Positions 8,514-64,000 of a DNA stretch of 64,000 bases are shown here, piece after piece. A program made the translations under genes and the position numbers. Within the stretch, counting starts at the first letter, position 1, and each line of letters begins with the position of its first letter. The DNA comes from Pseudomonadota bacterium (GTDB taxonomy: Bacteria; Verrucomicrobiota; Verrucomicrobiia; Limisphaerales; SXTU01), in the NCBI GenBank assembly GCA_009924135.1, contig RFSE01000011.1:921-64920 (forward strand), given 5' to 3'. The notes under the pieces were generated by a model. It had not been told where the DNA came from, made no database searches, and saw only the letters and a list, made by a program, of their open reading frames with translations.

Positions 8514-8551
8514 CGGATGTTTCTGTGTTTCATCTGTGTCCCATCTGTGGC
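8514..8551 (+). promoter_or_regulatory. solo tri-iteron arm (ATCTGTG-type repeats at 11-bp spacing) upstream of the zinc-ribbon gene
   Basis: cggatgtttctgtgtttcatctgtgtcccatctgtggc. It has the same architecture as the arms of the MITE-like elements at 31370 and 45887, and ends 15 nt before ATG 8567. Confidence 0.55.
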
Positions 8552-9141: not shown

Positions 9142-10857
9142 CTACTTCACCACCATGGCGCTGAACGGCAGGACGTAGGCCTGTAAATAGACGAAGATTC
9201 CCACGAGGGTCGCCAGCGCAAGGCTGTGGAAGAAGACGTAGCGCAGGATGCTGCCTTCGTGGCCGTACCAGTTCGTCGCGGTGCTCGCCACGACGATGCT
9301 TTGCGCGTCCACCATCTTCCCCATCACGCCGCCGGAGCTGTTCGCGGCGGCCATGAGCACAGGGCTGATGCCCGTCTGCTCCGCCGTGATCCGCTGGAGG
9401 CTCCCGAAGAGCACGTTGCTCGCGGTGTCACTGCCCGTCAGCGCCACGCCCAGCCAGCCCAGCAGCGTGCCAAAGAACGGATAGAGCGAACCGGTTTTGG
9501 CCAGCGCCAGGCCAAGCGTGGCATCCGTGCCGGAGTATTTGGTGACGTAACCGAGGGCGAGCATCGCGGCGATCGTGATGAGCGAAAAGCGCACGTTCCA
9601 CAAAGTACGGCGATAGACCCGTACCAGTTCCATCAGCGAGAATCCCATGTAAAACCCGGCGAGGATCGCGGCCACGAGGATTCCGGTGCCGGTAGCCGAG
9701 AGCCAGTTGAACTTAAACTCGGCCGCCTCGGGTTTGGTGGGCTTTTCCGGAGTGGGCTGCGGCACCACGGGGAACGTCCGAACCGTGGCGTTGTGCAAAC
9801 GGGGAATTTCCCATTTCGGGGACGACAAGGCATCCAGCCGCTGTTTCATCATCGGCACGCCCCAGAGGAAAACCAGCACGCTGAGCAGCAGCCACGGCAC
9901 CCAGGCACGGCGAACCAGTGATGCGTTTGGGGGTTCGAGTTTCGAGTTTCGAGTTGGCGCGTTGCTGTTCGATTGCGCGGCGGCGTCCGAACCCGAAACT
10001 CCCAACTCCAAACTTGGAACATTTCCCGACACCCACCCATCCTTCGGCTGCCAGACCTTGAGCAGGGCCACCACGGCTCCGAGCGAGCACAGCGCCGCAA
10101 CGATGTCCACCAGCCATGGACCATGGTAATTCGAAACCAGAAACTGCGGCACCGCGAAACTCACGCCCGCCGTCAGGCAGGCCGGCCACACGCCGAGCAT
10201 CCCGCGCCAGCCAGCATAAGCCCACACGACCCAGAAAGGGACGATAAGCGAGAAGACCGGCAGTTGCCGGCCGATCATCGCCGACACGGCATGCAGGTCG
10301 AGGCCGGTAACGCCAGCGAGCGCAATGACCGGCGTGCCCAACGCGCCGTAGGCCACCGGCGCAGTGTTGGCGATGAGGGAAAGACCGGCGGCCTGAAGGG
10401 GCTTGAAACCCAGCTGCATCAGGATCGCCGCCGTGACGGCCACGGGCGTGCCGAAACCCGCCGCCCCCTCGAAGAACGCGCCGAAGCTGAACGCGATGAG
10501 CACCAATTGCACCCGTGGGTCAGGTGCCAAGTCCGCGAGGCTCCCACGCAGGACCGCAAACAAGCCTTTGTCCACCGTGAGCTGGTAAAGGAAAATCAGG
10601 TTCAGAATGATCCATCCGATGGGAAATAAACCATATGCCGCGCCCAGACCGGCCGTCGCAAGCGCGGCATCCGCAGGCATCCGAAACGCCAGCAACGCCA
10701 CCGCCAGGGCCACGCCCAAACCGAGCAACGCAGCGAGGTGGATTTTGATTTCCAACCAGGCGATGGCCCCCAGCAGCACCACCACCGGGAGGGCGGCAAC
10801 GAGCGTTGAAAGCCAGGGGTTTCCGAGCGGGTGGTAGTTTTGCGGCCAGGGTGCCAT
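9142..10857 (-). CDS. lctP: L-lactate permease (LctP family)
   Basis: 571-aa polytopic membrane protein. The N-terminus WPQNYHPLGNPWLSTLVAALPVVVLLG and the overall pattern fit the LctP/LldP family. Carries a low-complexity insert encoded by the heptamer element at 9934-10014. Confidence 0.85.
   Translation of the reverse strand: MAPWPQNYHPLGNPWLSTLVAALPVVVLLGAIAWLEIKIHLAALLGLGVALAVALLAFRMPADAALATAGLGAAYGLFPIGWIILNLIFLYQLTVDKGLFAVLRGSLADLAPDPRVQLVLIAFSFGAFFEGAAGFGTPVAVTAAILMQLGFKPLQAAGLSLIANTAPVAYGALGTPVIALAGVTGLDLHAVSAMIGRQLPVFSLIVPFWVVWAYAGWRGMLGVWPACLTAGVSFAVPQFLVSNYHGPWLVDIVAALCSLGAVVALLKVWQPKDGWVSGNVPSLELGVSGSDAAAQSNSNAPTRNSKLEPPNASLVRRAWVPWLLLSVLVFLWGVPMMKQRLDALSSPKWEIPRLHNATVRTFPVVPQPTPEKPTKPEAAEFKFNWLSATGTGILVAAILAGFYMGFSLMELVRVYRRTLWNVRFSLITIAAMLALGYVTKYSGTDATLGLALAKTGSLYPFFGTLLGWLGVALTGSDTASNVLFGSLQRITAEQTGISPVLMAAANSSGGVMGKMVDAQSIVVASTATNWYGHEGSILRYVFFHSLALATLVGIFVYLQAYVLPFSAMVVK
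9934..10014. repeat. inverted heptamer arrays flanking a 39-bp core, inside the lctP CDS
   Basis: ttcgagt x3 perfect (9934-9954), a core at 9955-9993, then cgaaact cccaact ccaaact (9994-10014). The right array is the inverted counterpart of the left (agtttcg family). Total 81 bp = 27 codons, in frame. Confidence 0.85.
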
Positions 10858-19374: not shown

Positions 19375-20889
19375 CTACTTGTCCGTTCGAAACGGTGACG
19401 CTGGCAGACCCGCGCCGTTGTAGAGATTGCACGTCGGCCAGTTCTCCCACGCGTAACGCGCCGCCACGGGCGCTTTCACGTCCGGGTGCGAGACGATGAC
19501 CGTGTCGCCTACGATCCGGGCCTGGGCGGGCTTCCACTGGTTGTCTGCCCCGGCGACGACAAAGCCTTTCAACTCACCGCCCTTGGCGACCAATCCGCCG
19601 TCGGTGTGCGTGAAGCGCAGCACCACTTCGCTGCCCTTCACTTCATGGCCGGCCGGCAGGGGTCCGCTGGTGGCGACCTTTTGACCGTACACGCTGCCCA
19701 GCGCCCAGACGGCGAGGCGGCGTCCCACCTCTTGTTTGTTCTTCGGGTGGATGTCCTTTTCCTCACCGACGTCGATGGTGATGGCCATGCCGGTGTCCTT
19801 CAATTTGAGCGTCTGCAACATGGCTTCACGCACGCCGGGCCAGTCACGACCGACAGCTCCAAAGTTCGGGAGCTGCACCCAGGCGAAGGGGAAATCGTAG
19901 CCCCAGCGTTTACGCCAGTCAGTGACCAGCAGGGAAAGCTGGTGGTGGTAGAAGCCGGCTCTCTCCGGAGTGGAGTTGGCCTCGCCCTGATACCACAACG
20001 CGCCCCGGATGGCGTAGGGAATAAGCGGAGCAATCTTGCCGTTGAAGAGGCCGCCGAGATTGCCTTTACGCTCGGCCACGCTGGCGGGGTCGATGGGACG
20101 CCGCGGCGCGGGCCTGCCTTCGGCCTTGGCCTTGGCGCCGGCTTCCTTCCATTTGGCAACGTCAGTTTCATACTTCGCCTTGGCCTGCTCGGGGTCCACA
20201 GGCTTGGCCGGCTTTTTGGCCGTGTCTAGGAAAGCCTTGAGTTCCGGGGCGGCCTGCTGCGTTTCGGGCGCAATCCACGATTCAATTGGCGTGCCACCCA
20301 CCGAAGAGTTGATGAGGCCGACCGGGACATTCAGCGATTTGTGAATCTCCCGGCCGAAGAAGTACGCCGTGGCGGAGAAGCGCCCGACGCTCTCCGGCGA
20401 GCAGATGACCCACTCGCCCTTGCCCACGGTCTGCGCAGTGTTCGCGGCGGGGGAACCTTCGGTGAACATGCGGATGAACGGATACTTCGCCGCAGCCTGC
20501 TCCTGCTCGTAATCCTTCGCCCGGCTGACCTGCATGGCCATGTTCGATTGCCCGGAACCCAGCCACACTTCCCCGATGAGCACGTCGGAATAAGTGAGCG
20601 TGTTCGCGCCCTTCACGGTGAGCGTCTGCGGACCGGCGGCGGAGAGCTTGGTGAGTTTCACGGACCACTTGCCATCGGGCCCAGCCTTCGTGGAAGCACT
20701 TTGGCCGGCGATGGTGACGGTGACTTCCTCACCCGGTGCGGCGGTACCCCAGACCGGCACGGCGGAGTCGCGCTGAAGAACCATGTGATCGCCAAAAATG
20801 GCCGGGAGCTTCACGTCGGCACGCGCGGTGACGACGAGCAGCAGGGCCAGGACTGCGGGCGTGACAAGGATGGCGGAGCGGCGTTTCAT
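19375..20889 (-). CDS. sialate O-acetylesterase-like SGNH/DUF303 carbohydrate esterase, secreted
   Basis: ORF 19375..21690 trimmed to ATG 20889 (MKRRSAILVTPAVLALLLVVTARA; alternative ATG 20910). Contains LPAIFGDHMVLQR...VWGTA...GEVWLGSGQSNMA and WYQGEAN. Confidence 0.8.
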   Translation of the reverse strand: MKRRSAILVTPAVLALLLVVTARADVKLPAIFGDHMVLQRDSAVPVWGTAAPGEEVTVTIAGQSASTKAGPDGKWSVKLTKLSAAGPQTLTVKGANTLTYSDVLIGEVWLGSGQSNMAMQVSRAKDYEQEQAAAKYPFIRMFTEGSPAANTAQTVGKGEWVICSPESVGRFSATAYFFGREIHKSLNVPVGLINSSVGGTPIESWIAPETQQAAPELKAFLDTAKKPAKPVDPEQAKAKYETDVAKWKEAGAKAKAEGRPAPRRPIDPASVAERKGNLGGLFNGKIAPLIPYAIRGALWYQGEANSTPERAGFYHHQLSLLVTDWRKRWGYDFPFAWVQLPNFGAVGRDWPGVREAMLQTLKLKDTGMAITIDVGEEKDIHPKNKQEVGRRLAVWALGSVYGQKVATSGPLPAGHEVKGSEVVLRFTHTDGGLVAKGGELKGFVVAGADNQWKPAQARIVGDTVIVSHPDVKAPVAARYAWENWPTCNLYNGAGLPASPFRTDK

Positions 20890-25146: not shown

Positions 25147-25424
25147 TCCACCCCTGGAGGAGCTCAACGAACCTCGAATTCCGGCGACTTCAACCCGTCG
25201 ATTTTTGAATTGCCCGGGGCTGTTTGGACTAAAAGCTTCCTCCAATATTCCTGCCCAAAATCTTCCTGCCATAAGTTCGGCTCCTGAAATTGCGATGCAG
25301 ACGATTGGTGCCGAGGAAAACCAGCGCGAGACCGTCCCTTTTACCTTTTTACTTTTTCCTTTTGCCTTCGCCCCGCGCCCAATTTCCGCTGGCCCACCCC
25401 GGCCCCGGTCTTTAAAACAGCCGC

Positions 25425-31369: not shown

Positions 31370-31523
31370 CCACAGATGAAACACGGACGGAACACGGATG
31401 GGGACGAGCGGAGCACGCGTATTGTCGCAGTTGCCTGCCTGGACCAAACGGTGCGGGTCAAACAGCGGGGCAACGCGGCCCCGGCACCGTTGGCTCCGTG
31501 TTTAATCCGTGTTCCATCCGTGG
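31370..31523. mobile_element. MITE-like element, copy 1 (terminal inverted repeats made of triple iterons)
   Basis: The left arm ccacagatgaaacacggacggaacacggatgg and right arm ccgtgtttaatccgtgttccatccgtgg match at about 23 of 28 positions as inverted repeats. About 90% identical by hand alignment, without indels, to 45887-46040. Similarity extends about 14 nt further right. Confidence 0.75.
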
Positions 31524-31586
31524 CTCAACTGCATCGTCCCAACTTAGGCGAAGCTCACCTGACGACGAACGGCACCAGCCTCCCAT

Positions 31587-31614
31587 TCTCAACTTTCAAC
31601 CTTTAACTCTCAAC
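31587..31614 (+). repeat. imperfect heptamer array directly upstream of the glpK ATG
   Basis: tctcaac tttcaac ctttaac tctcaac, then cttccc, then ATG at 31621. Confidence 0.7.
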
Positions 31615-31620
31615 CTTCCC

Positions 31621-36006: not shown

Positions 36007-36015
36007 GGGGGGAAA

Positions 36016-36120
36016 GTGTTCAGTAATCAGTGTTCAGTTTTCAGTCATCGCAGACGCCGACAGCCGTCGGAGTGGACTCAAAACTGAAAACTGAAAACTG
36101 AAAACTGAAAACTGAAAACT
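36016..36120. repeat. inverted heptamer arrays flanking a 34-bp core (radC-lpxA spacer)
   Basis: Left array gtgttca gtaatca gtgttca gttttca (36016-36043). Core catcgcagacgccgacagccgtcggagtggactc, with ccgac-agcc-gtcgg. Right array aaaactg x5 plus a partial copy (36080-36120), the inverted counterpart of the left array and abutting the radC stop codon. Confidence 0.9.
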
Positions 36121-45789: not shown

Positions 45790-45886
45790 TCAGCTTCGAA
45801 GGCTTGAACGGCGAGAATAGGGAAAAGTTGCGTCCGGGGCAAAGGAATTGCCTCAGGGAAAGGCCTTAGCCGGACCGATTCATTCG

Positions 45887-46040
45887 CCACGGATGAAACA
45901 CGGACGGAACACGGATGGGGACGAGCTGAGCACGCATTCTGTCGCAGTTGCCTGCCGGCACCAAGCGGTGCGGGTCATGCAGCGGTGCGGAGCGGTCCCG
46001 GCACCGTTGGCTCCGTGTTTAATCCGTGTTCCATCCGTGG
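45887..46040. mobile_element. MITE-like element, copy 2
   Basis: ccacggatgaaacacggacggaacacggatgg ... ccgtgtttaatccgtgttccatccgtgg. About 90% identical to 31370-31523, with most differences in the interior. It lies between the ATPase start (45789) and the prc stop (46093). Confidence 0.75.
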
Positions 46041-46092
46041 CGCAACTGCATCGTAGGCTAAGCCAGACCGAAATCCACCTGTCCGATTGAGC

Positions 46093-62979: not shown

Positions 62980-63002
62980 GGTCAGCGGTTTCACGGCGCG
63001 GA

Positions 63003-63030
63003 GTTTCGGGTTTGGTGTTTCCGGTTTCGA
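63003..63030. repeat. heptamer array GTTTNNN x4
   Basis: gtttcgg gtttggt gtttccg gtttcga, 24 nt upstream of the rnhC ATG. Confidence 0.8.
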
Positions 63031-63047: not shown

Positions 63048-64000
63048 TTGAGATTTAGTCCAAAGTCCAAAGTCCAAAGTCCAAAATCGCAGCCTGCCGG
63101 GCGCGCACTGGCCACACGCAGCGCAGCTTCCGCCATTCCGCATTCCGCATTCCGCATTCCACCTTCCCTCGTCCCTGCCCTGCTCGGTTGGTTCGCCGCC
63201 GCCGCACGCGACCTGCCCTGGCGACGCACGCTGGACCCCTACGCCATCTGGATCAGCGAGATCATGCTGCAACAGACGCAGGTGAAGACCGTCATCCCGT
63301 ACTGGGAACGCTGGCTGCGTGAATTGCCGGACGCCGCCGCCCTCGCCGCCGCGCCGGAGCAACGCGTGCTCAAGCTCTGGGAAGGCCTGGGCTATTACAC
63401 GCGCGCCCGCAATTTGCAGAAGGCCGCGCAGCAGGTCGTGAGCACTCACGGAGGCCGCTTCCCGCACGCGTTTGACGCCATTTTGGAATTGCCCGGCGTG
63501 GGCCGCTACACGGCCGGCGCGATTGCCAGCATCGCCTTGAACCAGCCCGCACCCATCGTGGACGGGAACGTCATCCGCGTGCTCACCCGCCTCTTTGCCA
63601 TCGGGGAAAATCCGCGCGACAAGGCGACGAACGAACAGCTCTGGCACCTCGCCACGCAACTGGTGCAGGCCGCCGCTCGAATTACGAATTACGAATTACG
63701 CATCGCGGGGCTGGTCGTTTCCGGAGCGTGTTCGGCGCTGAACCAGTCGCTCATGGAGTTGGGCGCGACGGTCTGCACGCCGCAAAGCCCGCAGTGCCTG
63801 CTGTGCCCGGTACGCCCCCATTGCGCCGCGCACCGGGAGGGCCGCGTCGGCGAACTGCCAAACCTCGGGCCGCGCACCGCGACCACGAGCCGGGAGTTTC
63901 ATGCCTTCGTTGTGAACTGTGACGGAAAGTTGCCTGTGACACAAAGGCCCAGCGGCGGAGTGAATGCGGGCTTGTGGGAGTTTCCGAACGTGGAAGTCAC
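63048..64000 (+). CDS. mutY: A/G-specific adenine DNA glycosylase MutY (3' end outside the window; start unresolved)
   Basis: Own translation; not in the ORF track because there is no stop in the window. From 63180: LLGWFAAAARDLPWRRTLDPYAIWISEIMLQQTQVKTVIPYWERW...GLGYYTRARNL...LPGVGRYTAGAIASIA...VDGNVIRVL...NQSLMELGATVCTPQSPQCLLCPVRPHC (HhH-GPD plus 4Fe-4S Cys cluster). There is no in-frame ATG upstream. Candidate starts are TTG 63048, GTG 63015 and TTG 63012. Confidence 0.85.
   Translation, partial: MRFSPKSKVQSPKSQPAGRALATRSAASAIPHSAFRIPPSLVPALLGWFAAAARDLPWRRTLDPYAIWISEIMLQQTQVKTVIPYWERWLRELPDAAALAAAPEQRVLKLWEGLGYYTRARNLQKAAQQVVSTHGGRFPHAFDAILELPGVGRYTAGAIASIALNQPAPIVDGNVIRVLTRLFAIGENPRDKATNEQLWHLATQLVQAAARITNYELRIAGLVVSGACSALNQSLMELGATVCTPQSPQCLLCPVRPHCAAHREGRVGELPNLGPRTATTSREFHAFVVNCDGKLPVTQRPSGGVNAGLWEFPNVEV
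63057..63084. repeat. perfect heptamer array AGTCCAA x4
   Basis: agtccaa agtccaa agtccaa agtccaa, read directly. Confidence 0.95.
63134..63161. repeat. heptamer array CATTCCG x3 + CATTCCA
   Basis: cattccg cattccg cattccg cattcca, read directly. Ends 18 nt before the first conserved MutY codon. Confidence 0.95.
63678..63698. repeat. perfect heptamer array CGAATTA x3 inside the mutY CDS
   Basis: cgaatta cgaatta cgaatta (21 bp, in frame) encodes RITNYEL. It lies within a segment that is about 18 aa longer than the corresponding E. coli MutY loop before the NQ..M.LGA motif (comparison from memory). Confidence 0.9.

Follow-up and report, generated by a model that had tools for sequence, protein, structure and literature searches.

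Introduction

Tandem arrays of 7-nucleotide (nt) units, or heptamers, have been known in bacteria since 1990, and work from 2007 is said to have found heptamers to be the over-represented class of long simple-sequence repeat. To our knowledge, nobody knows the reason for the period of seven or any role of heptamer arrays. Here we describe an inverted pair of such arrays lying inside lctP, the L-lactate permease gene, on a 64,000-nucleotide stretch of a Limisphaerales genome (phylum Verrucomicrobiota; assembly GCA_009924135.1, contig RFSE01000011.1, positions 921 to 64,920). The whole of this stretch is called the window, and positions without a further label are numbered from its first letter. 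The lctP element belongs to the known but unexplained bacterial class of 7-base repeats. Its copy in a conserved gene, kept in frame in six relatives, allows constraint on the nucleotides to be told from constraint on the peptide, and the comparison argues that the arms are held as nucleic acid.

The part of PMC4692102 that cites Mrazek 2007 gives heptamers as over-represented among the simple sequence repeats of many bacteria and attributes this to polymerase slippage. In Xanthomonas, GGGAATC arrays often form convergent inverted pairs, and the type is retained from species to species (Rehm et al. 2015, PMC4692102). Hairpins of the cyanobacterial 7-bp STRR (short tandemly repeated repetitive) sequences lie between hupS and hupL, where an effect on transcript stability or translational coupling has been proposed (PMC2670836). 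TAACTGA arrays of Beggiatoaceae are found upstream of start codons and occasionally inside open reading frames (ORFs) (MacGregor 2015, PMC4679880), and Rickettsia palindromic elements (RPEs) are found in frame inside Rickettsia genes (PMC10969869).

The lctP element is most like the STRR hairpins of cyanobacteria and the Xanthomonas arrays of GGGAATC in inverted pairs. Shared with STRR are the 7-bp units, the short tandem arrays, the several unit types per genome and the hairpins between co-transcribed genes, represented in the window by element A between radC and lpxA (Table 1). Unlike STRR, the present arrays belong to Verrucomicrobiota (Limisphaerales), stand in frame inside a conserved permease, keep a fixed layout of five units, 30 nt and five units (5+30+5) and are constrained at synonymous sites; we know of no report of synonymous-site constraint for STRR. 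One of the units found in relatives, CCCCAGA, is one base from the unit of STRR1, which we take to be CCCCAGT. Common to the lctP element and the Xanthomonas arrays are inverted heptamer arrays lying near each other, possible stem-loops, orthologous positions that are kept while the sequence varies, and a single or paired type that is usually preserved. The Xanthomonas arrays, however, consist of one dominant G-rich unit capable of forming G-quadruplexes, are mostly intergenic and vary in length between species, whereas here there are many units, none of them G-quadruplex-prone, copies stand in frame in genes and the length is frozen across seven lineages. Arrays of 7 nt and their inverted pairing are already known; what appears from the sequences to be new is the phylum, the coexistence of many units, the fixed 5+30+5 layout, the interior in-frame site in housekeeping genes and the silent-site constraint.

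Results

Anatomy of the lctP element

The host ORF encodes an intact product of 571 amino acids (aa), for which hundreds of PF02652 proteins give alignments of 99-100% coverage. Its top homologues, up to 99% identical, are annotated as lactate permease, and the best relatives are Pedosphaera-like metagenome-assembled genomes (MAGs) of the order Limisphaerales in the Verrucomicrobiota. An earlier note on the window, made from the sequence alone, had placed a repeat block in this gene, translated from the minus strand, and both the gene and the translation were given correctly. Orthologous loop DNA was taken from genomes and metagenomes; DNA sequences of relatives are designated by L-numbers and their LctP protein sequences by P-numbers. 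Six orthologues (L091, L099, L103, L001, L097 and L098) were aligned with the window, and a metagenome scan with the conserved downstream pattern gave 16 loci.

Read along the sense strand, conserved GGNTGG codons are followed by 18 nt of ordinary sequence, five units of GTTYSGR, a 30-nt core, five units of AACYCRA and conserved downstream sequence. The register set by the six orthologues gives five units per arm and a core of 30 nt, and hence an element of 100 bp (9921-10020), which is not a multiple of 3. The earlier note had described TTCGAGT x3 at 9934-9954 and an inverted counterpart, CGAAACT CCCAACT CCAAACT, at 9994-10014, as two arrays of exactly three copies around a 39-bp GC-rich core, together a unit of 81 bp or 27 codons. 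Both strings are present as described, the plus-strand TTCGAGT x3 falling inside the downstream arm. The 81 bp and the three copies are an artefact, because three perfect downstream units had been counted together with three of the five decayed upstream ones. The 39-bp segment is indeed GC-rich (69%, compared with 73% for the true core and 62% for the window), but its boundaries take in decayed units. Tandem Repeats Finder (TRF) reports both arrays in lctP (period 7; 3.1 copies at 100% identity). With up to two mismatches allowed, the double unit TTCGAGTTTCGAGT has three matches in the window against a shuffle mean of 0.39, and 0 of 100 shuffles reach three. The heptamer repeat in lctP is not a chance match.

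Table 1. Heptamer arrays of the window and the host gene of the lctP element
Feature	Position	Strand	Description
lctP host gene, L-lactate permease	9142..10857	minus	ORF, 571 aa, PF02652
lctP element, downstream arm (sense)	9921..9955	minus	AACTCGA x3, ACCCCCA, AACGCAT; skeleton AAC.C..; 35 nt
lctP element, core	9956..9985	minus	30 nt, 73% GC; length conserved, sequence not
lctP element, upstream arm (sense)	9986..10020	minus	GTTCCAA GTTTGGA GTTGGGA GTTTCGG GTTCGGA; skeleton GTT..G.; 35 nt; register with six orthologues
Lone degenerate array	25337..25368		CCTTTTT-like x4.6; divergent intergenic region
Sister element A	36015..36120		TTTCAGT-like x4.4, 30-nt core, ACTGAAA x6.4
Array	62996..63030		GTTTCGG GTTTGGT GTTTCCG GTTTCGA; unit family of lctP upstream arm
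Element B	63057..63167	plus	AGTCCAA x4.1, core, ATTCCGC x4.6-4.9; non-complementary arms; in open frame into mutY
mutY array	63678..63700	plus	CGAATTA x3.3; encodes ARITNYELRI

Conservation with a period of 7 nt

Selection was compared on seven lctP genes, that of the window and its six orthologues, which are not independent sequences. Outside the loop that holds the element these genes show 87.5% identity in protein and 66% at four-fold sites; between the window and each other gene, four-fold identity is 51-58%. All seven have a common geometry of 18+35+30+35 nt with zero indels. Because the same geometry is found in seven lineages with nearly saturated synonymous sites, the element is, on the evidence of this alignment, an old resident of lctP and not a recent insertion. 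The earlier note had pictured an element that can land in genes, and a recent landing in lctP does not fit the indel-free geometry.

Within the element, pairwise identity is 0.78 in the arms and 0.48 in the core. Conservation in the arms has a period of 7 nt: in the upstream units G1 and T2 show no variation and T3 and G6 very little, A1, A2, C3 and C5 of the downstream units likewise hardly vary, and the other positions of the units are about 50% identical. This period is out of step with the codons, and the skeleton is kept at silent positions too. The upstream arm has two Val codons per genome, and the triplet is GTT in 14 of 14 cases, whereas GTT accounts for 5% of the 370 Val codons in the remainder of these genes. 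The codon whose third base is the first A of the downstream arm reads NCA in seven of seven (CCA makes up 4% of Pro codons elsewhere), and the Lys codon in the element is AAA in all seven versus 29% elsewhere. As silent positions obey the 7-nt skeleton, we conclude that purifying selection acts on this skeleton as nucleic acid, not on the amino acids. Our preferred reading, to which we assign a probability of about 0.55, is an old resident inverted pair of heptanucleotide arrays whose stem skeleton is held as nucleic acid, with the peptide as a tolerated by-product in a disordered loop.

A neutral microsatellite, produced by heptamer-biased slippage in a tolerant loop and having no nucleic-acid function or selection, would agree with the attribution of heptamer over-representation in bacteria to slippage in the part of PMC4692102 that cites Mrazek 2007. 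It would also agree with the hypervariability of the LctP loop across the clade and with the downstream arm, which is partly homogenised within genomes (three perfect units in the window, four near-identical ones in L091 and in L103). It would leave without explanation a skeleton that is invariant at synonymous sites against strong GC codon bias, arms so much better conserved than the adjoining unconstrained core, and a copy number unchanged in seven lineages. Moreover, identity at the variable positions of the upstream arm is 0.57 between genomes compared with 0.37 within a genome. This positional orthology indicates that homogenisation, by slippage or gene conversion, is not what conserves the upstream arm, and it was rejected as the cause there. 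Copy-number variation between close relatives, the signature of slippage, was not seen among the lctP loops of this type, the sole change in units being the loss of three in L102. On balance, a neutral origin of the pattern seems improbable.

Length changes among the lctP loops of this type are limited to three cases: the core of L104 is 27 nt long, equal to the loss of one codon; L102 is without exactly three downstream units (21 nt); and the L003 type is array-free and resembles a 51-nt deletion derivative. The frame preservation proposed in the earlier note is borne out by the 21-nt loss in L102, but it does not operate through a 27-codon unit or a three-copy rule. The three-copy array reported in mutY is real, but the contrast drawn between three copies in genes and 4-6 outside them fails, because in-gene arrays of the orthologues have 4-5 units. 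Close relatives had been suggested as a place to look for absence of the block or for other copy numbers; the six orthologues have the same 5+5 geometry, and a changed copy number was met in L102.

The LctP loop

Residues 280-313 of LctP are encoded by the element, which gives rise to the peptide VPSLELGVSGS...PTRNSKLEPP. No relative of LctP was found by sequence in the PDB, and the loop was placed instead with an AlphaFold2 (AF2) model built on 38 orthologues (mean predicted local distance difference test score, pLDDT, 72.8). In the model, residues 279-306 have a pLDDT below 50 and form a hydrophilic loop between helices 247-268 and 312-333. The element is thus predicted to reside in frame in a low-confidence protein loop, and the UvrA and MutY segments described below are taken as further cases of in-frame residence in a surface or loop region of a conserved protein. 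The loop slice has 63 residues here, versus usually 44-46 in about 60 more distant LctP proteins. Alignment with LctP orthologues, the check that the earlier note had advised, accordingly places the block in a loop that is 17-19 residues longer than in most distant proteins. A repeat-free loop of the same length in distant orthologues had been named as what would speak for ancestral protein sequence; most are shorter, but loops of 60-65 residues without heptamer arrays exist in a few Proteobacteria and in one Acidobacteria MAG. Because of these array-free loops of like length, loop length alone is not diagnostic.

Selection might instead act on the protein or on translation, through the low-complexity peptide or through rare AT-ending codons that would slow the ribosome after a transmembrane helix. 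The element does lie after a transmembrane helix of LctP and is rich in genome-rare codons (GTT, CCA, AGT, TTG and AAA), and close relatives share peptide motifs such as V-[SP]-[SG]-x-E-x-G-V-S. The period of conservation, however, is 7 nt and not the codon, and a particular rare codon is specified (GTT, never GTA; NCA, never NCT). Loop peptides are wholly different in other lineages, and the same kind of element is found in untranslated spacers. We give very little credence to this explanation.

Insertions of other kinds were also found in the loop. A ~190-nt insertion in L008 (10811-11125) encodes LLPLLHRMEERAGERR, and a GGCCGGTCTCCGACCCGGC-type element in L009 (10793-10966) and L081 encodes ERRSPTRRD. 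The presence of these other small palindromic repeats indicates that the lctP loop tolerates several kinds of insertion.

Pairing, folding and strand asymmetry

The arrays of the lctP element are opposite in orientation, close to each other and complementary, as in an inverted pair. Pairing of the downstream arm with the upstream arm is offset by 4 nt in register. With G:U counted, the share of paired cells among the 217 of the stem is 81% at one register, compared with 7-56% at shifted registers; the inverted counterpart of the earlier note is therefore right in orientation but imperfect in complementarity. Fold z-scores are -1.9 and -2.3 for the lctP element of the window, -5.2 for that of L001 and -7.7 for that of L014. 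Strong hairpins are formed in several relatives and by element A.

A number of results weigh against the preferred reading. The selection test rests on only seven related, non-independent sequences, and the copy in the window qualifies only marginally as a hairpin (z about -2). Covariation is weak: five double-change pairs were counted against a shuffle mean of 3.5, with 90 of 500 shuffles as good, and the covariation score was matched by 27 of 500 shuffles. Skeleton conservation may for this reason reflect sequence recognition instead of pairing. The antisense strand folds better in seven of seven window-type elements (summed, -383 versus -299 kcal/mol), with a gain of 7-23 kcal/mol per element, and the gain is 9 kcal/mol in a uvrA element of a relative; an exception is the lctP element of L014, which has a different unit and whose antisense strand is not better folded. 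Non-Watson-Crick stem cells on the sense strand are mostly A:C (24, versus 6 G:U), and A:C becomes G:U on the antisense strand. Because the antisense strand folds better, a simple mRNA-hairpin role does not fit. The arms of element B and of the L005, L101 and L083 elements are non-complementary, yet their arrays are conserved at 0.91-0.94 versus 0.70-0.74 at four-fold sites. Finally, Rfam 15 gave no match at gathering score in the whole window and none at E <= 1 in 9800-10150, no terminator-like site was detected on either strand in 9600-10400, and no promoter was found at the site of the lctP element.

Periodic binding sites for an oligomeric nucleic-acid-binding protein, with the recognised sequence and not the hairpin under selection, would account for several of these features. 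The skeleton is specific in sequence and shows hardly any compensatory change, conservation extends to arrays whose partners are non-complementary, and the two-array geometry of about 5+30+5 is fixed. The array units are also non-random, with 51% AT in a 62% GC genome and GAA or TTC in 64% of units versus 22% expected. Analogues would be the two-site RNA target of HutP, with its 7-nt spacing, and the heptad promoter repeats bound by ToxR; HutP reportedly binds two sets of three NAG-N4 repeats about 20 nt apart. However, skeletons differ by locus (GTT..G., GGAAYGC, CCCCAGA and others), so that one binding specificity cannot cover all of them. Many pairs, furthermore, are clearly complementary hairpins, and no candidate protein was identified. 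We consider selection on binding sites of this kind improbable.

Similar elements in relatives

Period-7 arrays and hairpins occur clade-wide, both within genes and in the gaps between cistrons. In L002, L005, L083 and L101 the lctP loop holds an element of the same architecture made of unrelated units, GGAAYGC...CCCCAGA or CGAACTC. Further units in this loop are GCGAATG...ATTCCGC in L100, AGAATGA...CATTCTT in L014, GAATTCA in L086 and TCCAGAA in L008. Start offsets differ between loop types, the L101 type beginning 14 nt earlier, and spacers are 28-35 nt in most array pairs. On a tree of the flanking protein the loop types are mosaic, and the loops of P0018 and P0017 are chimeric, with the upstream arm of one heptamer type and the downstream arm of another. 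The mosaic types and the chimeras suggest recombination between alleles, with putative crossovers in or near the core, and such recombination may be the source of the non-complementary pairs.

Elements of this build are not restricted to lctP. In L101, uvrA contains an in-frame hairpin of GGTCGAA x4 and TTCGACC x4 (20112-20204; -60.9 kcal/mol, z -8.3), which is an insertion of about 31 residues after the UvrB-binding domain compared with all solved UvrA structures. A covariance model of the lctP element found a second copy of the GTTYSGR/AAACNNN family at L091 10719-10816 (five units, about 28 nt, five units), on the same contig as the lctP of L091. This copy has a different core and is followed, after a few bases, by the start codon of an M16-like peptidase gene. 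Hairpins of the same build were found with this model at other loci as well. By blastn of cores and whole elements against 1.7 Mb (of which 64 kb are from this genome), only arrays are matched: no core is shared between loci, and no conserved full-length copy was found. Two strings considered as shared core motifs, ATCGCAG and AACAG, were rejected, as blastn shows no core similarity between loci.

These copies could be miniature mobile elements, similar to MITEs (miniature transposable elements with inverted repeats) or RPEs, with heptamer arrays as terminal inverted repeats and with in-frame copies surviving in permissive sites; the arms would be conserved by transposase or host-factor recognition while the cores drifted. 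Such elements would explain the unrelated units at different offsets in one loop of sister lineages, the second copy of the unit family on the L091 contig and the recurrence of identical heptamers across loci and genomes. They would also explain the insertion-like segments in lctP and uvrA, the heptamer array that marks an inserted segment of mutY, and a 90% match over 31 nt between the left arm and flank of element A and a non-orthologous site of L098 (see below). RPEs, which lie in frame in Rickettsia genes, provide a precedent: like the elements described here, RPEs and intragenic MITEs are palindromic, about 100-150 bp long, and in frame in unrelated housekeeping genes at fold-compatible positions (PMC10969869). 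RPE families, however, have a conserved full-length consensus and a conserved peptide, whereas what the present elements have in common is limited to the periodic architecture and the arm skeleton, and cores are unique. Neither a full-length consensus with an internal region nor a target-site duplication was found, no direct repeat flanking 9921-10020 or its orthologous elements. The many units coexisting in one genome make a single transposase specificity unlikely. The lctP copy, furthermore, is ancient and unmoved in seven lineages, and a clean empty site was not seen; the L003 type, which has no array, looks like a deletion derivative. A mobile element is in our view an unlikely explanation. 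Of the proposal that the element can land in genes, the insertion-like segments in lctP and uvrA stand, and mobility is unproven.

Other dispersed palindromes were compared as well. REP/BIME, Correia and ERIC sequences are similar in outline, being dispersed imperfect palindromes of about 100 bp between cistrons that form mRNA hairpins, but they are defined by a consensus and have no internal 7-nt periodicity, and REP is accompanied by the RAYT transposase. Integron attC sites, whose ends (GTTRRRY and RYYYAAC) recall the GTT and AAC of the arms, were rejected because order and consensus do not fit and other units are without GTT/AAC. Chi-like sites and phase-variation switches were rejected because units differ between loci and the hosts are housekeeping genes.

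Other arrays in the window

In a period census that held every period to the same fixed score threshold, period 7 accounted for five of six strong arrays in the window and for 28 of 37 in 486 kb of related verrucomicrobial DNA; shuffles gave none at any period. Heptanucleotide tandem arrays in the usual sense, with units of 7 nt in at least three copies and an excess of period 7, are therefore present.

Element A takes up all of the spacer from the radC stop to the lpxA start on the minus strand. As RNA it folds at -45.4 and -47.1 kcal/mol (z -6.3 and -6.6), and the model R1 scores 34.7 bits on it. Its left arm with a G-rich flank (GGGGGAAAGTGTTCAGTAATCAGTGTTCAGT, 36008-36038) is 90% identical over 31 nt to L098 15973-16003, a hairpin at a non-orthologous intergenic site, and an odd second unit is common to both. 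This shared left arm hints at a common descent of arms that now stand at different loci. The unit AAACTGA of element A is one base from the TAACTGA of Beggiatoaceae and cyanobacteria. TAACTGA repeats, described from Beggiatoaceae, Cyanobacteria and Bacteroidetes, occur in 2-6 copies just upstream of starts, with occasional ORF copies at the protein periphery (PMC4679880). Like the present arrays, they have a translatable orientation that is dictated by the stop-codon content. TAACTGA repeats are, however, direct and of a single unit with almost no inverted pairs, whereas the arrays here are inverted around a core, have many units and lie in an interior protein loop.

Element B shows no hairpin folding (z +1.3 and -0.1), and its pairing with the array at 62996-63030 was rejected, since the two fold no better than shuffles. 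In-frame mutY starts (TTG 63012, GTG 63015 and TTG 63048) all lie upstream of element B, and no in-frame ATG, GTG or TTG occurs between the 63057-63167 arrays and the conserved N-terminus of MutY (LLGWF...). Because the start candidates are all upstream, the arrays of element B are probably translated as an N-terminal extension of MutY of at least 44 aa, overlapping a divergent RNase H-like ORF. Further into mutY, no partner array was found for the CGAATTA array. The segment 63640-63760, which includes this array, encodes about 17 extra residues (QAAARITNYELRIAGLVVSGACS) compared with the solved MutY of Geobacillus (6q0c). The unit CGAATTA was seen again at L004 17246, beside an ATTCCCC x4.9 array.

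A heptamer-like CAACYTT x4 array (TRF: period 14) is located at 31591-31617, directly upstream of ATG 31623, and adjoins one copy of a separate dispersed repeat with a period of 11 bp. This repeat has the form (TCYGTGTNNNA)2-3 followed by TCYGTGGC and is found at 8515-8550, 31481-31537, 45885-45920 and 45998-46055. Over about 57 bp the copies at 31481-31537 and 45998-46055 are nearly the same, and 45885-45920 is the inverted partner of the 45998-46055 copy, 95 bp apart. Two of the copies are closely followed by start codons (8567 and 31623). The 11-bp-period family differs from the heptamer elements in having a conserved sequence.

Discussion

The earlier observation of a heptamer element in lctP is partly confirmed by this analysis, and its interpretation is partly supported. 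In the preferred reading of a resident array pair held as nucleic acid, the single-stranded element would fold into a long imperfect stem-loop, in which GUU..G. and AAC.C.. would supply G-C, U-A, U-A and G-C pairs for each heptad. The element could have originated by heptamer-biased slippage together with inverted duplication or template switching, or in an ancient copy-and-paste event. What selection sees might be a stem-loop like the REP and STRR intercistronic hairpins, acting in RNA processing or stability, or else a hairpin in DNA. The encoded peptide would be tolerated in the disordered inter-helix loop of LctP. The reading frame would restrict changes of copy number inside the gene to three units at a time, so that the copy would be frozen.

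A bolder reading, which we offer as speculation and think quite unlikely, is that heptamer-array pairs are actively maintained cis-elements. A trans-acting factor would read the 7-nt register in two arms of about 35 nt placed some 30 nt apart. It might be a ring-shaped or filament-forming nucleic-acid binder, or a structure-specific nuclease or transposase. As part of the same doubtful proposal, the antisense strand would be the preferred folded form, and selection would override codon bias in housekeeping genes. If this were true generally, it would account for heptamers being the repeat class in excess across bacterial phyla, and for the presence of nearly identical units in unrelated phyla (AAACTGA/TAACTGA, CCCCAGA/CCCCAGT and GGAATxC).

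A copy locked in a conserved gene is a natural experiment on such arrays: slippage is blocked by the frame, the codons on either side serve as a neutral clock, and the three codon phases allow nucleotide constraint to be told from amino-acid constraint. Here the skeleton persists at silent sites in spite of a strong GC bias in codon use, and the spacer drifts without restraint, which argues that selection perceives the arrays as nucleic acid. If the silent-site constraint holds on more genomes, the question of why heptamers are favoured would turn into a testable one, that of finding the structure or factor by which they are read. Repeat-encoded loop segments are present in housekeeping proteins of Verrucomicrobiota (LctP, UvrA and MutY), which bears on annotation and on the interpretation of low-complexity "hypothetical" peptides of this phylum. 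The main value of the lctP element is as a natural test of selection on heptamer arrays as nucleic acid.

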